Positions 4,097 to 18,120 of a stretch of 18,745 bases of DNA are shown one piece after another. The notes under the pieces were generated by a model. It saw only the letters and a program-made list of their open reading frames with translations, was not told the DNA's origin and searched no databases. The stretch spans positions 1 through 18,745 of the IMG/VR virus record IMGVR_UViG_2563366948_000001. One strand, 5' to 3'. Origin of the DNA: a virus (taxonomy: Duplodnaviria > Heunggongvirae > Uroviricota > Caudoviricetes). How positions within the stretch are numbered: position 1 is the stretch's first letter; each line of letters opens with the position of its first letter. The translations under genes and the position numbers were made by a program.

Positions 4097-4314
4097 TTCG
4101 AACCTCTCTGTTTACTGATAAGTTCCAGATCCTCCTGGCAACTTGCACAAGTCCGACAACCCTGAACGGCCAAGCGTCTTCGTTCATCTATCGGATCGCC
4201 ACACTCACAACAATGAGTGGCAGATATAGCCTGGTGGTTCAGGCGGCGCATTTTTATTGCTGTGTTGCGCTGTAATTCTTCAATTTCTGATGCTGAATCA
4301 ATGATGTCTGCCAT
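4093..4314 (-). CDS. TraR/DksA-family C4 zinc-finger protein (lambda Orf73-like)
   Basis: 73 aa with CCECGDPIDERRRLAVQGCRTCASC four-Cys zinc finger typical of TraR/DksA; lambda carries a TraR-like orf73 in this region. Confidence 0.75.
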   Translation of the reverse strand: MADIIDSASEIEELQRNTAIKMRRLNHQAISATHCCECGDPIDERRRLAVQGCRTCASCQEDLELISKQRGSK

Positions 4315-4360
4315 CTTTCATTAATCCCTGAATTGTTGGTTAATACGCTTGAGGGTGAAT

Positions 4361-4390
4361 GCGAATAATAAAAAAGGAGCCTGTAGCTCC
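4361..4390 (-). terminator. Candidate intrinsic terminator in the leftward operon
   Basis: GGAGC-CTGTA-GCTCC hairpin (4376-4390) followed on the minus strand by TTTTTTATTATT (4361-4375). Confidence 0.4.
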
Positions 4391-4412
4391 ATGATGATTT
4401 TGTTTTTCATGC

Positions 4413-4694
4413 TCACCGTTCCTTAAAGACGCCGTTTAACATGCCGATCGCCAGGCTTAAATGAGTCGGTGTGAATCCCATCAGCGTTACCGTTTCGCGG
4501 TGCTTCTTCAGTACGCTACGGCAAATGTCATCGACGTTTTTATCCGGAAACTGCTGTCTGGCTTTTTTGATTTCAGAATTAGCCTGACGGGCAATGCTGC
4601 GAAGGGCGTTTTCTTGCTGAGGTGTCACTGAACAAGCCCCATGTCGGCAAGCATAAGCACACAGAATATGAAGCCCGCTGCCAGGAAAATGCAT
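4413..4694 (-). CDS. Small early-left hypothetical protein (lambda b-region family; start uncertain)
   Basis: 93-aa ORF; no clear Shine-Dalgarno at the ATG; an in-frame GTG with upstream GGGG would give 71 aa. Confidence 0.5.
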   Translation of the reverse strand: MHFPGSGLHILCAYACRHGACSVTPQQENALRSIARQANSEIKKARQQFPDKNVDDICRSVLKKHRETVTLMGFTPTHLSLAIGMLNGVFKER

Positions 4695-6028: not shown

Positions 6029-6726
6029 AAAACATCGCCGCACAGATGGTTAACTTTGACCGTGAGCAGATGCGCCGGATCGCCAACAACATGCCGGAAC
6101 AGTACGACGAAAAGCCGCAGGTACAACAGGTAGCGCAGATCATCAATGGTGTGTTCAGCCAGTTACTGGCAACTTTCCCGGCGAGCCTGGCTAACCGGGA
6201 CCAGAACGAACTGAACGAAATCCGCCGCCAGTGGGTTCTGGCTTTCCGGGAAAACGGGATCACCACGATGGAACAGGTTAACGCAGGAATGCGCGTAGCC
6301 CGTCGGCAGAATCGACCATTCCTGCCATCACCCGGGCAGTTTGTTGCCTGGTGCCGGGAAGAAGCATCCGTTACCGCCGGGCTGCCAAACGCCAGCGAGC
6401 TGGTTGATATGGTTTACGAGTATTGCCGGAAACGTGGCCTGTATCCGGATGCAGAGTCTTATCCGTGGAAATCAAACGCGCACTACTGGCTGGTTACCAA
6501 CCTGTATCAGAACATGCGGGCCAATGCGCTGACTGATGCGGAATTACGGCGCAAGGCTGCCGATGAACTGGCCTGTATGACAGCGCGAATTAACCGTGGT
6601 GAGGCGATACCTGAACCAGTAAAACAACTTCCTGTTATGGGCGGGAGACCGCTTAATCGTGTTCAGGCTCTGGCGAAGATCGCAGAAATCAAAGCGAAGT
6701 TTGGGCTGAAAGGAGCAAGTGTATGA
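6025..6726 (+). CDS. P: Lambda replication protein P (DnaB helicase loader)
   Basis: 233 aa MKNIAAQMVNFDREQMRRIANNMPEQYDEKPQVQQVAQIINGVFSQLLATFPASLANRDQNELNEIRRQW..., recognised as lambda P. Confidence 0.95.
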   Translation: MKNIAAQMVNFDREQMRRIANNMPEQYDEKPQVQQVAQIINGVFSQLLATFPASLANRDQNELNEIRRQWVLAFRENGITTMEQVNAGMRVARRQNRPFLPSPGQFVAWCREEASVTAGLPNASELVDMVYEYCRKRGLYPDAESYPWKSNAHYWLVTNLYQNMRANALTDAELRRKAADELACMTARINRGEAIPEPVKQLPVMGGRPLNRVQALAKIAEIKAKFGLKGASV

Positions 6727-6896
6727 CGGGCAAAGAGGCAATTATTCATTATCTGGAGACGCACAAGAGCTTCTGTGCGCCGGACGTTGCTGTGACAACA
6801 GGTGTGACATTAACCAGCATAAATCAGGCTGCGGCAAAAATGGCGCGGGCAGGAATCCTGGTCATTGATGGTAAGGTCTGGCGAACGTTTGTTTAA
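6723..6896 (+). pseudogene. ren: ren, truncated (57 codons; N-terminus lambda-like, premature end)
   Basis: ATG overlaps P stop; MTGKEAIIHYLETHKSFCAPDVAVTTGVTLTSINQAAAKMARAGILVIDGKVWRT then FV-stop, whereas lambda Ren is 96 aa. Confidence 0.6.
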
Positions 6897-7042
6897 CGGT
6901 TAGCTACTCAGGATGATAGGGCGGGGCAAGTGAGTATGAAGCGGATTTTAAGGAATGCCATCAGAGTTTGGAAATAAAGTGGGTTTTCTAGTGGCAAGAG
7001 ACTTGATAATATTTAGTTCTTTGAATCCAAGGAGATAGGGTT

Positions 7043-7537
7043 ATGAGAAAATTTATTTTAGCCTTTGTTATAAGTGCCTCGTTTACAGCAAATGCTGGTG
7101 TAGAGAAGTTAGGGCCGTGGATAACAAAGTCTGAGATAAATAAAATGACTGACCAGACTGACTTTGTGGCTCTTAATTTATCACCAGATTCATATAACAA
7201 AGCAGGTACTGATCGTGCAACTTCACTGGTGTTGCGTTGTAGTGATAACAAAACAGATGCCTATTTATCATTCAATGATTATATGGGTTCGGACAACCCA
7301 AGAATTACAGTGCGGTTAGATGGCGGAAAGCCGGTCAAGAGTGTTTGGGGAGGTGGGGAAGGCGGTGATTCTGCATTTGCTCCACAACCAATACAATTTA
7401 TAAAGACCTTGGCTAAGCATAAAAAAGCTATTTTTGGGTTTGAACCTTATGGATCAACTATGCAAGTAGTTGAGTTTGACTTGTCTGAGATTGATAAGGT
7501 TGTGGAAAAAATTTCACAGTCTTGCAATTGGAAATGA
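7043..7537 (+). CDS. Secreted or periplasmic protein of unknown function (moron)
   Basis: 164 aa with signal peptide MRKFILAFVISASFTANA and AxA cleavage motif; strong AAGGAGA Shine-Dalgarno 8 nt upstream; AT-rich codon usage unlike flanking lambda DNA; own terminator. Confidence 0.7.
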   Translation: MRKFILAFVISASFTANAGVEKLGPWITKSEINKMTDQTDFVALNLSPDSYNKAGTDRATSLVLRCSDNKTDAYLSFNDYMGSDNPRITVRLDGGKPVKSVWGGGEGGDSAFAPQPIQFIKTLAKHKKAIFGFEPYGSTMQVVEFDLSEIDKVVEKISQSCNWK

Positions 7538-7554
7538 CAAAAAAATTTCATATG

Positions 7555-7580
7555 AACCCAGTTGGCGCTGGGTTTTTTAT
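7555..7580 (+). terminator. Intrinsic terminator of the secreted-protein gene
   Basis: AACCCAG-TTGGCG-CTGGGTT hairpin followed by TTTTTTATTT, 18 nt after the stop codon. Confidence 0.7.
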
Positions 7581-8174
7581 TTCAGTAGCCAATAATGCAT
7601 TCAAAATCTCTTACTTGAGAAACGGCCTATTTGAGATTTCAGTCGTGGCAGGATGATCAGTTGATTCGAGTATTGACGCATTTGCGTTCGGAGCGATTAC
7701 AGTAGATTGTAAATAATAATGAGAAACACATAGCCACATAGCCACCCCGTGGTATTGAAACCATATAATGTTGGATTTGAAAACAGATCTTTTCCCATGT
7801 ATTAATAACTACATCCCCGCGAGTAATTCAAAAAGGAGGGCCCAATTTTGTCCGAGTTTTTGTATTCCCCCGCATGCCGCTGCGGAGCACTACATCTGAG
7901 TGTCTGACTAGGGGATAAAATTAGACTGGATAGTGAGAAGAAAGTGGCGCGCTAGGCTGTGCCGAGTGCTACCAGTACACCTTGGGGGTGTGCAGCTTTC
8001 GCCGAGACTGTAGTGGGTATCGGTTAATGCACGAAAAACCGAGAGGTCAGACAACCAATTTGCCGTAGGATTGTTTCCGGTGCGATACCGGTCTACTAAC
8101 TGAAAGCAATGCGAAAAAGCATAAACTCGGTCCTTCAGTCGCCCTACACACTATTTACTAAGAAGGGCTGAAGC

Positions 8175-8375
8175 ATGGATACAATTATTACATGGATGGG
8201 AGATCGTCTGTTGGGGGGGACACAAAAATCCGATCTGCGGCAGATGGCGATCACTGGATTAACTTCCGCGATTTGTTCAACAATTTTGTACACTGAAAAA
8301 TTAAAACATGGTGAGCCTATTAACCCAAACGAAGAAGAAAAACTTTATAGGCTTTGGTATGAAGGAAACGCTTGA
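8175..8375 (+). CDS. Small hypothetical protein (66 aa)
   Basis: ORF MDTIITWMGDRLLGG... with GAAGGG Shine-Dalgarno-like motif upstream; no recognisable family. Confidence 0.4.
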   Translation: MDTIITWMGDRLLGGTQKSDLRQMAITGLTSAICSTILYTEKLKHGEPINPNEEEKLYRLWYEGNA

Positions 8376-8581
8376 AAGAATAAAGCACAATTAAAACCTT
8401 TGATTTGCGATAATCAACTTGCCATAATTAAGTAATCGGAGCCTGAACAACTCCGGTGACTTCTGCGCTAAACGGGGACGTTTATGCGCACATACAATCC
8501 AACCTCTCTTCTCCATTCACAGATGCAGAAATGCACCTGCGATATTTTGCATCCAGCGTTTGATCTCTGCGGAGGTGAAGC

Positions 8582-9037
8582 GTGAACCTCCCACAAGATG
8601 GTATCAAATTGCATCGCGGTAACTTCACCGCTATCGGTCGGCAGATCCAGCCTTATCTGGAGGACGGCAAATGCTTTCGTATGGTGCTTAAACCGTGGCG
8701 CGAGAGACGCAGTCTTTCCCAGAATGCACTCAGCCACATGTGGTACAGCGAAATCAGTGAATACCTCATCAGCAGGGGTAAAACGTTCGCCACTCCAGCT
8801 TGGGTAAAAGATGCTCTCAAACACACTTATCTCGGTTATGAAACCAAAGAACTGGTTGATGTCGTAACCGGTGAAATCACCACCATTCAGTCATTACGTC
8901 ATACCTCCAATCTTGATACCGGAGAGATGTATGTCTTCCTGTGTAAGGTTGAAGCCTGGGCGATGAATATTGGCTGCCACCTGACTATTCCGCAGAGCTG
9001 CGAGTTCCAGCTGCTGCGCGACAAGCAGGAGGCGTAA
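8582..9037 (+). CDS. ybcN: NinB-family recombination protein (DLP12 YbcN-like)
   Basis: 151 aa, GTG start with GGAGG Shine-Dalgarno; sequence recognised as YbcN/NinB family ([13 protein letters not shown] motif). Confidence 0.8.
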
Positions 9038-12187: not shown

Positions 12188-12299
12188 GAGTCTCGATATT
12201 AGCTGATAACCCAATACCTGAGTTATTCACTGACTCCGAGTCTGTTACGTTTCGTAGTATTCCCTCAATTTACACCCGCTTTGTCTGCGAGGTGGGGTT

Positions 12300-12515
12300 A
12301 TGAAATCCATGGATAAGTTAACAACGGGTGTCGCCTATGGCACCTCAGCAGGTAGTGCCGGGTACTGGTTTTTACAGCTGCTAGATAAAGTCACGCCCTC
12401 ACAGTGGGCGGCAATTGGAGTGCTGGGTAGCCTGGTATTTGGCCTGCTGACGTACCTGACAAACCTTTATTTCAAGATTAAAGAAGATAAGCGTAAGGCT
12501 GCGAGAGGTGAATAA
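12300..12515 (+). CDS. essD: Class II pinholin (S21-type) with dual-start motif
   Basis: 71 aa [29 protein letters not shown]...; Met1-Lys-Ser-Met4 dual start typical of S21 antiholin/holin; two TM segments. Confidence 0.9.
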
Positions 12516-13012
12516 TGTCGCCATCATTACGCAAGGCTGTAGCAGCTGCTATTGGTGGTGGGGCTGTTGCCATAGCGTCTGTGCTCATCACTGGTCCGAG
12601 TGGTGACGATGGTCTGGAAGGTGTCAGCTACATACCATATAAAGATATTGTTGGTGTATGGACTGTATGTCACGGGCATACAGGAAAAGACATCATGCTC
12701 GGTAAAACGTATACCAAAGCAGAATGCAAAGCACTCTTGAATAAAGACCTTGCCACTGTCGCCAGACAAATTAACCCGTACATCAAAGTCGATATACCGG
12801 AAACAACGCGCGGCGCTCTTTACTCATTCGTTTACAACGTGGGTGCTGGCAATTTCAGAACATCGACGCTTCTTCGCAAAATAAACCAGGGCGATATCAA
12901 AGGCGCATGTGATCAGCTACGTCGCTGGACATATGCTGGCGGTAAGCAATGGAAAGGTCTCATGACTCGTCGTGAGATTGAGCGTGAAATCTGTTTGTGG
13001 GGTCAGCAATGA
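12515..13012 (+). CDS. rrrD: SAR endolysin (signal-anchor-release lysozyme, R21-type)
   Basis: 165 aa; N-terminal Gly/Ala-rich weakly hydrophobic SAR segment [20 protein letters not shown], then lysozyme domain; start overlaps holin stop. Confidence 0.9.
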
Positions 13013-14283: not shown

Positions 14284-14460
14284 CGCGGGTTTTCGCTATT
14301 TATGAAAATTTTCCGGTTTAAGGTGTTTCCGTTCTTCTTCGTCGTAACTTAATGTTTTTATTTAAAATACCCCCTGAAAAGAAAGGAAACGACAGGTGCT
14401 GAAAGCGGGCTTTTTGGCCTTTGTCGTTTCCTTTCTCTGTTTTTGGCCGTGGAATGAACA

Positions 14461-15915
14461 ATGGAAGTCAACAAAAAGCAGCTGGCTGACATTTTCGGTG
14501 CGAGTATCCGTACCATTCAGAACTGGCAGGAACAGGGAATGCCCGTTCTGCGAGGCGGTGGCAAGGGTAATGAGGTGCTTTATGACTCTGCCGCCGTTAT
14601 AAAATGGTATGCCGAAAGGGATGCTGAAATTGAGAACGAAAAGCTGCGCCGGGAGGTTGAAGAACTGCGCCAGGCCAGCGAGGCAGATCTCCAGCCAGGG
14701 ACTATTGAGTACGAACGCCATCGACTTACGCGTGCGCAGGCCGACGCACAGGAACTGAAGAATGCCAGAGACTCAGCTGAAGTGGTGGAAACCGCATTCT
14801 GTACTTTCGTGCTGTCGCGGATCGCAGGTGAAATTGCCAGTATTCTCGACGGGATCCCCCTGTCGGTGCAGCGGCGTTTTCCGGAACTGGAAAACCGACA
14901 TGTTGATTTCCTGAAACGGGATATCATCAAAGCCATGAACAAAGCAGCCGCGCTGGATGAACTGATAACCGAATCCCATCTCGGCAAGGAGCTGCTGGAA
15001 AAAGTCGAGCTGACGGAGGATAACGCCAGCAAACTGGAGGAGTTTTCGAAAGAGTGGCAGGACGCTAACGATAAGTGGAATGCCATGTGGGGCGTCAAAA
15101 TTGAGCAGACCAAAGACGGCAAACATTATGTCGCGGGTATTGGCCTCAGCATGGAGGACACGGAAGAAGGCAAGCTGAGCCAGTTTCTGGTTGCCGCTAA
15201 CCGTATCGCGTTTATTGACCCGGCAAACGGGAATGAAACGCCGATGTTTGTGGCGCAGGGCAATCAGATATTTATGAACGACGTGTTCCTGAAGCGCCTG
15301 ACGGCCCCGACCATTACCAGTGGTGGAAATCCACCGGCATTTTCCCTGACATCAGACGGAAAGCTGACCGCTAAAAATGCGGATATCAGTGGCAGTGTGA
15401 ATGCGAACGCCGGGACGCTCAACAATGTCACGGTAAATGAAAACTGTACGATTAAGGGCATGCTGGAGGCGACTCAGGTCAGAGGTGACTTCGTTAAAGC
15501 TGTATCCAAATCATTCCCGAAACAGGCTGGTACGTGGGGTAATACGGAAACACCAAACGGGACGGTTACAGTCACCATCAGCGATGATCATAACTTTGAC
15601 CGTCAAATCATTATTCCGCCCATTATCTTTAACGGAATAGCGTATAGCGATCCGGGAAGTGGTAATAACCCGGGAGGTACAAGATACACGGGTTATGGTT
15701 TTGAAGTTCGCAAAAACGGTGTATTAATCGCATCCAGAGAAACTAAAGGGGCCATTCCCGGTAGCTACAGTGCGGTTATTGATATGCCGAGTGGCAGGGG
15801 AAGCGTCACTCTGGAGTTTAAGGTTTTCCATAAAGGCAATCAGCGGGCAGGTAATATCACCGACTGTACGGTGATTGTGACCAAAAAAGCCGCTTCCGGC
15901 ATCAGTATTCGTTGA
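14461..15915 (+). CDS. In-frame fusion: terminase small subunit Nu1 (residues 1-169) joined to the C-terminal ~315 residues of tail-tip protein J
   Basis: N-terminus [34 protein letters not shown]...AALDELI is lambda Nu1; from [21 protein letters not shown]... onward it matches the lambda J C-terminal region; single 484-aa ORF. Confidence 0.85.
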
Positions 15916-17539: not shown

Positions 17540-18120
17540 TGGCATTCAGAATGAGTGAACAAGCACGGACCATAAAAATTTATAATCTGCTGGCCGGAAC
17601 TAATGAATTTATTGGTGAAGGTGACGCATATATTCCGCCTCATACAGGTCTGCCAGCAAACAGTACCGATATTGCACCGCCAGATATTCCGGCTGGCTTC
17701 GTGGCTGTTTTCAACAGTGATGAGTCATCGTGGCATCTCGTTGAAGATCATCGGGGTAAAACGGTTTATGACGTGGCTTCCGGCGATGCGTTATTTATTT
17801 CTGAACTCGGTCCGTTACCGGAAAATGTTACCTGGTTATCGCCGGGAGGGGAGTTTCAGAAGTGGAACGGCACAGCCTGGGTGAAGGATACGGAAGCAGA
17901 AAAACTGTTCCGGATCCGGGAGGCGGAAGAAACAAAAAACAGCCTGATGCAGGTAGCCAGTGAGCATATAGCGCCGCTTCAGGATGCTGTGGATCTGGAA
18001 ATCGCAACGGAGGAAGAAACCTTGTTGCTGGAAGCCTGGAAAAAGTATCGGGTGTTGCTGAACCGTGTTGATACATCAACTGCACCGGATATTGAATGGC
18101 CAGTAGCACCTATAGGGTAA
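17539..18120 (+). CDS. tfa: Tail fibre assembly protein Tfa
   Basis: 193 aa [54 protein letters not shown]..., recognised as lambda Tfa; start overlaps stf stop. Confidence 0.9.

Follow-up and report, generated by a model that had tools for sequence, protein, structure and literature searches.

A conserved element in the nin region of lambdoid phages that probably encodes a structured non-coding RNA

GOLLD and ROOL, described in Rfam and by cryo-EM, are large, intricately folded ("ornate") non-coding RNAs that are often found on prophages and have no associated protein partner (PMC12286853). The prophages of Escherichia coli additionally encode base-pairing small RNAs (sRNAs), such as DicF, IpeX, AsxR/AgvB and Pas: transcripts of ~50–170 nt, made of simple hairpins, that work by short seed pairing (PMC5069750; bioRxiv 10.64898/2026.05.13.724894). 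Here we describe a 329-nt element from an 18,745-nt stretch of phage DNA (IMG/VR record IMGVR_UViG_2563366948_000001; hereafter, the window) that very probably specifies a conserved, structured non-coding RNA on the plus strand. The element lies within a block, 6897–8581, between the phage genes ren and ybcN. An earlier examination of the DNA letters (hereafter, the sequence-only reading) had singled out this block as cargo of unknown function. The coordinates of all features discussed are collected in Table 1.

The limits of the element emerge from comparison of the window with Klebsiella phage Kp4856-1. The two align over 329 nt, with 78% identity and zero gaps; within the match, variable blocks are interspersed with invariant ones of 20–45 nt, and neither flank can be aligned. 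Scanning of viral and metagenome contigs for exact patterns, together with look-ups of homologues of a 118-aa phage protein (see below), gathered 31 distinct homologues, whose sources are IMG/VR and metagenomes as well as E. coli, Enterobacter bugandensis and Obesumbacterium proteus. The homologues are 76–100% identical and almost indel-free, and all sit in the nin regions of lambdoid phages. The element is present in 4 of 50,697 phage records and in ~3% of complete E. coli genomes, and its phage carriers span four or more enterobacterial genera (those of E. coli, Klebsiella, Enterobacter and Obesumbacterium). Among 185,579 species-representative genomes, scanned twice for exact patterns, there was no match. 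A degenerate-pattern scan of metagenome contigs, like the scans of viral contigs, returned only the same narrow family and a number of chance hits, the latter rejected by a covariance model of the element. The model (R1) scores the window copy at 383 bits, and finds no other match in the window or in 25 control loci. One IMG/VR contig (L036) carries a naturally truncated copy: at ~3370, a junction left by recombination or insertion ends the RNA at column 305.

The aligned homologues share a fold. RNAalifold proposes a two-domain consensus structure of 81 pairs, 11 of them with double changes. We refined this structure with helices suggested by single-sequence folds of several clades, and tested the resulting fold (92 pairs in 18 helices; Table 1) on 29 sequences. 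Slid controls, in which the 3' partners are moved by 1–3 columns and the same phylogeny is kept, provided the background. Standard pairs are found in 96.6% of cells (92 pairs in 29 sequences), as opposed to 36–45% in the slid controls; compensatory double changes occur at 16 of the 92 pairs (2–6 in the controls), and the covariation score is 0.213 (0.04–0.06 in the controls). The observed values were reached by none of 500 shuffles. Among the covarying pairs are 130:186 (A-U/G-C), 138:156 (C-G/A-U/U-G), 196:205 (five pair types) and 269:275 (A-U/U-A/C-G); the first, third and fourth of these correspond to window positions 7942:7998, 8008:8017 and 8081:8087. Versions of the element that were not used to derive the fold conform to it: 89 of the 92 pairs are kept in Enterobacter, and 86 in Obesumbacterium.

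Two further properties of the alignment concern the strand and the coding capacity of the element. Firstly, the strand is fixed as plus because G·U cells far outnumber A·C cells (315 versus 3); for the complementary strand, the share of cells that could pair falls to 84.8%. The intrinsic terminators found in relatives lie on the plus strand too. Secondly, the element appears not to be translated. Its variable columns are spread over the three codon positions as 52/47/47 (i.e., there is no codon periodicity), each plus-strand frame contains 2–8 stops, and no frame is open in all members. The most open minus-strand frame is intact in 7 of 23 members and interrupted by 1–4 stops in the other 16. 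One candidate, a 19-codon, TTG-initiated open reading frame (ORF) behind a Shine-Dalgarno (SD)-like AAGGAGG, was considered and rejected: it carries a premature stop in two members (L014 and L032) and a frameshift in a third (L058).

A sceptical reading of these data is that the stretch encodes no functional RNA, and is either recently spread non-coding or pseudogenised DNA, or a DNA site (an operator, origin or recombination site), with the fold an artefact of few relatives. The family is indeed shallow (at least 76% identity), and its variable blocks have been reshuffled by recombination; therefore, the sequences are not independent and the covariation counts are inflated by shared ancestry. 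Single-sequence folding energies are no better than those of shuffled sequences (z = -0.77 for the plus strand, -0.21 for the minus strand), the surrounding block is rich in gene debris, and some members have a minus-strand frame that is open across the element. However, shared ancestry is retained in the slid controls, which nevertheless fall far short of the 16 double-change pairs, and an excess of G·U over A·C cells on this scale is unlike either a DNA duplex site or neutral drift. Members held out of the derivation retain 93–97% of pairs, the 329 nt remain almost indel-free while both flanks diverge completely, and a coding signal is missing (no codon periodicity, and a broken minus-strand frame in most members). 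Finally, the conserved stretch is bounded by a promoter-like site at one end and by terminators at the other. We consider it improbable that the fold is an artefact or that the stretch is a mere DNA site.

The structured RNA predicted here matches no known family. Rfam 15 (4227 covariance models) contains no match over 7813–8141, either at gathering thresholds or at E ≤ 10, and none over the element in six divergent members. ARAGORN detects no tRNA or tmRNA, full-text literature searches found no published description of the element, and blastn (E ≤ 1) reveals no extended similarity or complementarity to other E. coli loci. An antisense target, or mimicry of another locus, was also considered and dropped, since the same blastn search returned no partial similarity elsewhere in E. 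coli. None of the 159 RefSeq E. coli genomes that carry the element has an annotation for it. Most likely, then, it represents an undescribed RNA family, and is the only part of the block that is at once intact, conserved and undescribed. In two phage records, Turner (PP925837) and IdasGreatGrand, short coding sequences (CDSs) for a "hypothetical protein" are annotated across the RNA (at 4144–4275 and 4325–4444 in Turner); these are probably spurious ORF calls.

The 5' end of the element abuts a promoter-like site, which ends 6–7 nt before the first conserved base—that is, before the first base of helix 1. The relatives carry hexamers at the same distance (near-consensus -35: TTGAAA, TTGAAT, TTGATA or TTGTAT; spacer of 17–18 bp; AT-rich -10-like: TTTAAT or TTAAAT, compared with ATTAAT/TATTAA in the window). 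Despite diverged surroundings, this position is held in all examined variants except the recombinant L046, in which the sequence has been replaced from ~-14. Just 5' of the -35 hexamer, at ~7757–7776, lies a conserved A-tract with a CCATAT-N4-5-TATGG-like motif. Equivalents of the motif are found in L048, L052, L056 and L101, and in two of these, L056 (AACCATAtgttgTATGGTT) and L048, the inverted repeat is perfect. The site could serve the RNA promoter as an operator or UP element.

At the 3' end, two arrangements are seen. In most non-E. coli variants, a strong plus-strand intrinsic terminator lies 8–12 nt past the last helix. No terminator is present in the window copy and its E. coli type, in two Klebsiella-type contigs, or in the Enterobacter and Obesumbacterium versions. 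Beyond these ends, the neighbouring genes change from one phage to the next. Upstream genes include an Ant-like gene, a gene with a dATP/dGTP pyrophosphohydrolase domain, and others, while at least six unrelated ORF families occur downstream (118-aa helical, 191-aa membrane, 183-aa, 177-aa, 95-aa and DUF1367-like). The 118-aa ORF is the commonest downstream partner, yet it is absent in most variants; conversely, homologues of this ORF at 51% identity have no RNA upstream. Between the window and the lineage of FORC_041, a DLP12-like prophage, the RNA differs at 4 of 329 positions, and the first ~190 nt of the adjacent ORF at ~15 positions plus an indel.

On balance, we think it probable that 7813–8141 is a self-contained phage gene for a ~330-nt structured non-coding RNA that acts on its own (an "RNA moron"). 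A stand-alone gene is favoured because the element has an apparent promoter and terminator of its own, is independent of its neighbours, and remains intact beside a dead ORF. Transcription would begin at the RNA's own sigma-70-like promoter, immediately upstream, and the transcript would fold into two domains, each shut by a long-range helix, with 18 helices in total. In most relatives, transcription would stop at the strong intrinsic terminator past the last helix, giving a discrete RNA of ~360 nt; in the window, and in the other E. coli, Enterobacter and Obesumbacterium forms, the RNA would be the 5' part of the transcript of the 118-aa ORF (broken in the window). Our best guess is that the invariant unpaired stretches contact a binding partner, either a protein or a nucleic acid, that belongs to the host or to a competing phage. 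The RNA would not primarily be a cis-acting switch for one downstream gene. This stand-alone action, like any biological role, is something that we infer.

Several observations weigh against a stand-alone RNA gene, in addition to the shallow family and the unremarkable folding energies discussed above. These include (i) the -10-like hexamers (TTTAAT, TTAAAT and ATTAAT), which are without the usually conserved A at position 2, (ii) a consensus promoter scan of the window, which makes no call at the promoter-like site of the RNA, and (iii) the terminator-less forms, in which the 118-aa ORF starts 34–36 nt after the RNA, an arrangement that fits a cis-acting leader equally well. In addition, (iv) both the transcription start and a discrete transcript in E. 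coli are ones that we infer from the DNA. Of the traits of a moron cassette, then, independence from neighbours is seen, a terminator is found in relatives and not in the window copy, and the promoter resembles the consensus without being called by the scan.

The main rival to a stand-alone RNA is a cis-acting 5' leader (a riboswitch, attenuator or sensor) that gates transcription or translation into the cargo gene that follows. Every variant does have a same-strand ORF ~35–60 nt past the RNA or ~20–30 nt past the terminator, leaving no room for another promoter. Moreover, the terminator-less arrangement of RNA and 118-aa ORF recurs in E. coli, Klebsiella-type contigs, Enterobacter and Obesumbacterium, and the order promoter, structured RNA, terminator, ORF is the classic layout of an attenuator. 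However, the genes that would be regulated are mutually unrelated and represent no single functional class, the 118-aa ORF exists elsewhere without the RNA, and in the window the downstream ORF has been destroyed while the RNA is intact. The sequence between the last helix and the terminator is not conserved, and the 5' arm of the terminator has no conserved antiterminator partner: its best alternative partners scatter over RNA positions 142–211 between variants. A riboswitch-type antiterminator was rejected for want of such a conserved pairing partner. To our knowledge, 329 nt with two closed domains also exceeds almost all known aptamers. Overall, we regard a cis-acting leader as unlikely.

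A second regulatory possibility follows from the position of the element. Within the early-right operon, and on its strand, the RNA falls between the replication genes and Q; it is followed by a terminator in most variants, and the identical prophage in E. coli NADC1036 (see below) has no annotated N-like gene. These features would suit a processive antitermination element, similar to the put sites of phage HK022, that lets polymerase pass its own terminator and those of the nin region towards Q. However, put RNAs are two-hairpin elements of ~70 nt that lie just downstream of pL and pR. The RNA studied here is five times larger and apparently has its own promoter, and lysogeny would not tolerate constitutive read-through into Q. 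Antitermination and the artefact or DNA-site explanation are both less likely than a leader, and we judge the former to be very improbable.

Returning to the stand-alone RNA, it is possible, if doubtful, that a new class of large structured RNAs, restricted to temperate phages of Enterobacterales, begins with this element, which would have its own activity and be expressed in lysogeny or early infection. Under this proposal, the RNA could work as a ribozyme, form an RNA-only assembly, or act on a host defence or RNA-binding protein as a decoy or scaffold. No bacterial system has been studied more closely than E. coli and its lambdoid phages, and a large structured RNA without known relatives is a rarity anywhere; the distribution of the element is narrow, and its presence in so well-studied a system is unexpected. 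If the RNA itself is real, a new RNA family would be added to a hot spot known otherwise for protein morons and anti-defence genes. It would come with a tractable model, as phage Turner and many lysogens are in culture, and would correct the annotation of phage records that now call small spurious ORFs across the element.

The window as a whole is an intact-looking lambdoid prophage, an identical copy of which is present in E. coli NADC1036 (locus L001) and has been annotated with the Prokaryotic Genome Annotation Pipeline (PGAP). The left part of this copy reads exo–bet–gam–kil, a repressor/Cro/YdaT immunity region, O- and P-like replication genes, and a ren pseudogene. After the block follow ybcN–ninE–ybcO–rusA–ylcG–Q, lysis genes, iss, and HK97-type head genes.

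Table 1. Features in and around the 6897–8581 block (window coordinates)
Feature	Coordinates	Strand	Description
ren pseudogene	6723–6991	+	Open for 57 codons (6723–6896), then frameshifted, decayed ren-like DNA to ~6985–6991
SD and 164-aa ORF	7029–7537	+	SD AAGGAG (7029–7034), ORF (7043–7537); low GC, Sec-signal-bearing VasI/TagO-like product
Intrinsic terminator of 164-aa gene	7554–7585 (terminator at 7554–7575)	+	GAACCCAGttggCGCTGGGTTT, then a T-run
Ant-like antirepressor 3' stump, P22AR_C domain	7617–7705	+	~29 codons and TAG stop; from alignment to FORC_041/Turner
Promoter-like site of RNA	7777–7806	+	-35 TTGAAA (7777–7782); spacing 17–18 bp; AT-rich -10-like TATTAAT (7800–7806)
Conserved structured RNA (predicted)	7813–8141	+	329 nt; comparative alignments, consensus fold, covariance model
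5' domain	7813–7916	+	Closing helix 7813–7818/7911–7916
3' domain	7924–8140	+	Closing helix 7924–7929/8135–8140
Fold in dot-bracket notation (window coordinate = 7812 + position)			(((((((((.(.((..((((((...((((........))))...))))))...)).).)))....((((.((((........))))))))........)))))).......((((((...(((((..((((((((..((...(((...)))...))...)).((((((((...)))))))).))))))(((((((((......)))))))))...))))).....((((((.(((......)))....(((.............(((((.....)))))..............)))((((......))))...))))))...)))))).
66-aa ORF	8175–8375	+	Truncated, frameshifted derivative of 118-aa phage gene (phrog_12412)
Phage-82-type orf33 (ylcH) leader and ORF	8399–8585	+	92% match to X92588 with deposited annotation
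orf33 leader parts			Putative -35 8400–8405; -10 8423–8428; inverted repeat 8432–8460; orf33 8484–8585

The block between ren and ybcN is not a single cargo unit. Each of its parts was searched separately in 5426 complete E. coli genomes: the whole block is present in 59, the 164-aa gene in 84, the 329-nt core of the non-coding stretch in 159, and any part of the block in 2961. Because its parts differ in distribution among E. coli genomes, the block is a recombinational mosaic of at least three modules. By elimination, and from the phage hits, the widespread part must be a flank, with the orf33 leader most likely. Positions 7617–8581 are 94% identical to DLP12-like prophages (e.g., FORC_041) and to phages Turner and IdasGreatGrand. 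In these prophages and phages, the order is P, ren, emrE, ylcJ, ybcK and an Ant-like gene, followed by ~460 nt of non-coding DNA, the 118-aa ORF, ylcH and ybcN. In another genome, with the same P–ren–TagO left side as the window, two unrelated ORFs replace the right-hand module. Because genomes that share this left side hold different genes, and because the neighbours of the RNA relatives vary, the interval from ren to ninB/ybcN is a variable moron or cargo slot. The sequence-only reading had likewise seen an insertion point for cargo at the boundary between the replication genes and the nin region, and the varying contents of the slot bear it out.

Other statements of the sequence-only reading fared differently. 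It had lambda-type DNA ending abruptly inside ren; the stop after 57 codons is real, and the abrupt end is not, as decayed ren-like DNA continues beyond it. It also had DLP12-like sequence resuming at the NinB homologue (YbcN, whose gene starts at 8582), and this proved incorrect on two counts: 8399–8581 already consists of the phage-82 orf33 (ylcH) leader, and the similarity to DLP12-like prophages and Turner, which also have emrE–ybcK, begins as far upstream as 7617. The contents that it listed for the block are all present, namely a low-GC gene for a secreted protein (164-aa ORF, SD, signal-like peptide and terminator), a 66-aa ORF, and ~640 bp of ORF-free DNA (zero ORFs of at least 60 aa between 7538 and 8174, on either strand). 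Its choice of the block as the best candidate for an undescribed function most likely stands by virtue of the predicted structured RNA in the ORF-free DNA, and falls for both ORFs. Pseudogene debris, which it named as an alternative, is what was found for ren, the Ant-like stump and the 66-aa ORF, and the 164-aa gene is a member of an annotated family. The parts of the block besides the RNA are ordinary: one catalogued secreted-protein gene, and the debris of three genes (ren, the Ant-like stump and the truncated 66-aa ORF). The G+C content (GC) is 0.35–0.45 across 6900–7800, compared with 0.50–0.57 in the flanks.

At the left edge of the block, ren has no full-length reading frame (~96–100 aa): translation would end prematurely after codon 57, and a frameshift affects the remainder. 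When aligned to the intact ren of FORC_041, the DNA after 6896 shows many substitutions and a 1-nt deletion, and PGAP describes the locus in NADC1036 as "protein ren; frameshifted; internal stop". Since ren-like DNA reaches ~6985–6991, the foreign insert starts near 6990.

The Ant-like stump marks the left edge of the module common to DLP12-like prophages, and retains only the last ~90 nt of its gene. The intact neighbour in relatives is annotated as a P22AR C-terminal domain protein and matches Pfam PF10548 and phrog Ant families; a full-length version of 202 aa is found in locus L057. Between the stump and the promoter-like site of the RNA, at 7727–7742, lies an 8-bp tandem duplication, CACATAGC CACATAGC. 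It occurs in only part of the window lineage, and FORC_041 and Turner are single-copy.

FORC_041 and Turner carry the 118-aa gene from which the 66-aa ORF is derived. A deletion of 134 bp between 11-bp direct repeats (TTGGTATGAAG) has shortened the ORF and shifted its frame; the surviving repeat copy is at 8354–8364. In an alignment of the 118-aa family, the invariant residues lie at 62–118, nearly all of them within the part deleted from the 66-aa ORF. A run of G at 8216–8222, inside the ORF, differs in length among near-identical prophages (L007 and L030), shifting the start or frame to give 60- and 66-aa versions. This variation is consistent with ongoing decay of the ORF. The 118-aa parent is modelled as a four-helix bundle, and a fold search with the model returned no significant structural match, with HEPN toxins appearing only at E ~0.5–1. 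A HEPN identity was dropped, as no R-x4-6-H motif was seen among the invariant residues.

The right end of the block has already been described: 8399–8581 is 92% identical to the phage 82 orf33–orf151 region (X92588; ylcH–ybcN in DLP12), and the identity takes in orf33 as well as the inverted repeat and putative promoter of the deposited record. The orf33 frame and the beginning of ybcN/orf151 overlap, the promoter-like site of the leader was independently flagged by the promoter scan, and PGAP annotates the 33-aa CDS.

The remaining intact gene of the block encodes the 164-aa protein, which begins with a typical Sec signal-like peptide (MRKFILAFVISASFTANA), read directly from the translation. 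PGAP names the product "type VI secretion system-associated protein TagO", and the TagO name also appears in several sources. It scores 26.7 bits against Pfam PF11319 VasI (cut-off 26.5), with only residues 56–163 aligned, and 14.4 bits against TIGR03360 (cut-off 124.2), failing this equivalog model. It also belongs to phrog_1848 (236 bits), a family of unknown function, and has homologues at 55–81% identity in Salmonella, Enterobacter, Citrobacter, Pantoea, Serratia and Klebsiella. Its AlphaFold2 (AF2) model has a mean confidence (pLDDT) of 78.6, with residues 1–17 disordered and the rest mostly beta with two helices; neither the sequence search nor the fold search returned a solved structural relative. 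Its neighbours, in the window and in one other genome, are phage replication and nin genes, with no type VI secretion system (T6SS) genes among them. In length, N-terminal signal and a C-terminal VasI alignment of ~110 residues, the protein is like members of the VasI/TagO family (PF11319, TIGR03360); it differs in being encoded in a phage nin region rather than a T6SS cluster, and in falling far below the TIGR03360 cut-off.

Could this protein, rather than the RNA, be the important cargo of the block, modulating host type VI secretion or envelope functions? The gene is intact, with SD, signal peptide and terminator, its low GC is typical of a moron, its family is kept across Enterobacterales, its AF2 model is confident, and PGAP calls it TagO. 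Set against these points are (i) marginal family membership, only 0.2 bits over the VasI cut-off and far under that of TIGR03360, (ii) the lack of T6SS genes nearby and of a related solved structure, and (iii) a prior entry in the catalogues (phrog_1848), hence no undescribed element. Furthermore, an important role for the protein would be compatible with the RNA finding, the two being separate modules (84 versus 159 genomes). We give this alternative very little credence. The 164-aa gene is a separate, ordinary and catalogued moron, with a predicted periplasmic product of the VasI/TagO family.

Other RNA and moron genes occur in the window and in related phages. At 17882–18080 of the window, on the plus strand, there is a full-length match to Rfam IS009 (RF02111; 221 bits, gathering threshold 117). 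The match falls on the junction of terminase and portal, at which the identical prophage has ymfR in its PGAP annotation. After the lysis cassette, on the minus strand at ~12252–12545 (14356–14649 in the NADC1036 locus), lies iss (increased serum survival), a known virulence-associated moron that encodes a Bor-like lipoprotein. Two Klebsiella-type loci, L004 (7979–8174 and 8371–8524) and L058 (620–691 and 1075–1148), contain Rfam-recognised STnc100, isrJ and tRNA genes. Because these genes are found there, the nin-to-late regions of Klebsiella-type phages appear generally rich in RNA genes.

How does the element compare with known systems? With HK022 put RNA, it shares a place in a lambdoid early operon, as a cis-encoded RNA with terminators after it; it differs in size, in architecture and in the apparent possession of its own promoter. 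Like the prophage sRNAs of E. coli, the predicted product is a non-coding RNA encoded on lambdoid prophages; unlike them, it comprises 329 nt, 18 helices and many invariant unpaired stretches. The Pas sRNA loci have a different gene context, and the element is not among them. The nearest analogues in kind are GOLLD and ROOL: the RNA predicted here is likewise large, structured, non-coding and prophage-borne, and was likewise defined by comparative sequence analysis. At roughly 580–800 nt, GOLLD and ROOL are larger than the element. They have no sequence or structure similarity to it, and their Rfam models miss it. They occur in Lactobacillales, rumen or lake bacteria, whereas the element is limited to lambdoid phages of Enterobacterales. 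Finally, with protein morons (HK97 gp15, lambda bor and lom) the element shares a promoter-like site and, in most relatives, a terminator of its own, insertion between conserved early genes, and independent mobility. It differs from them in its predicted product, which is a structured RNA instead of a protein.

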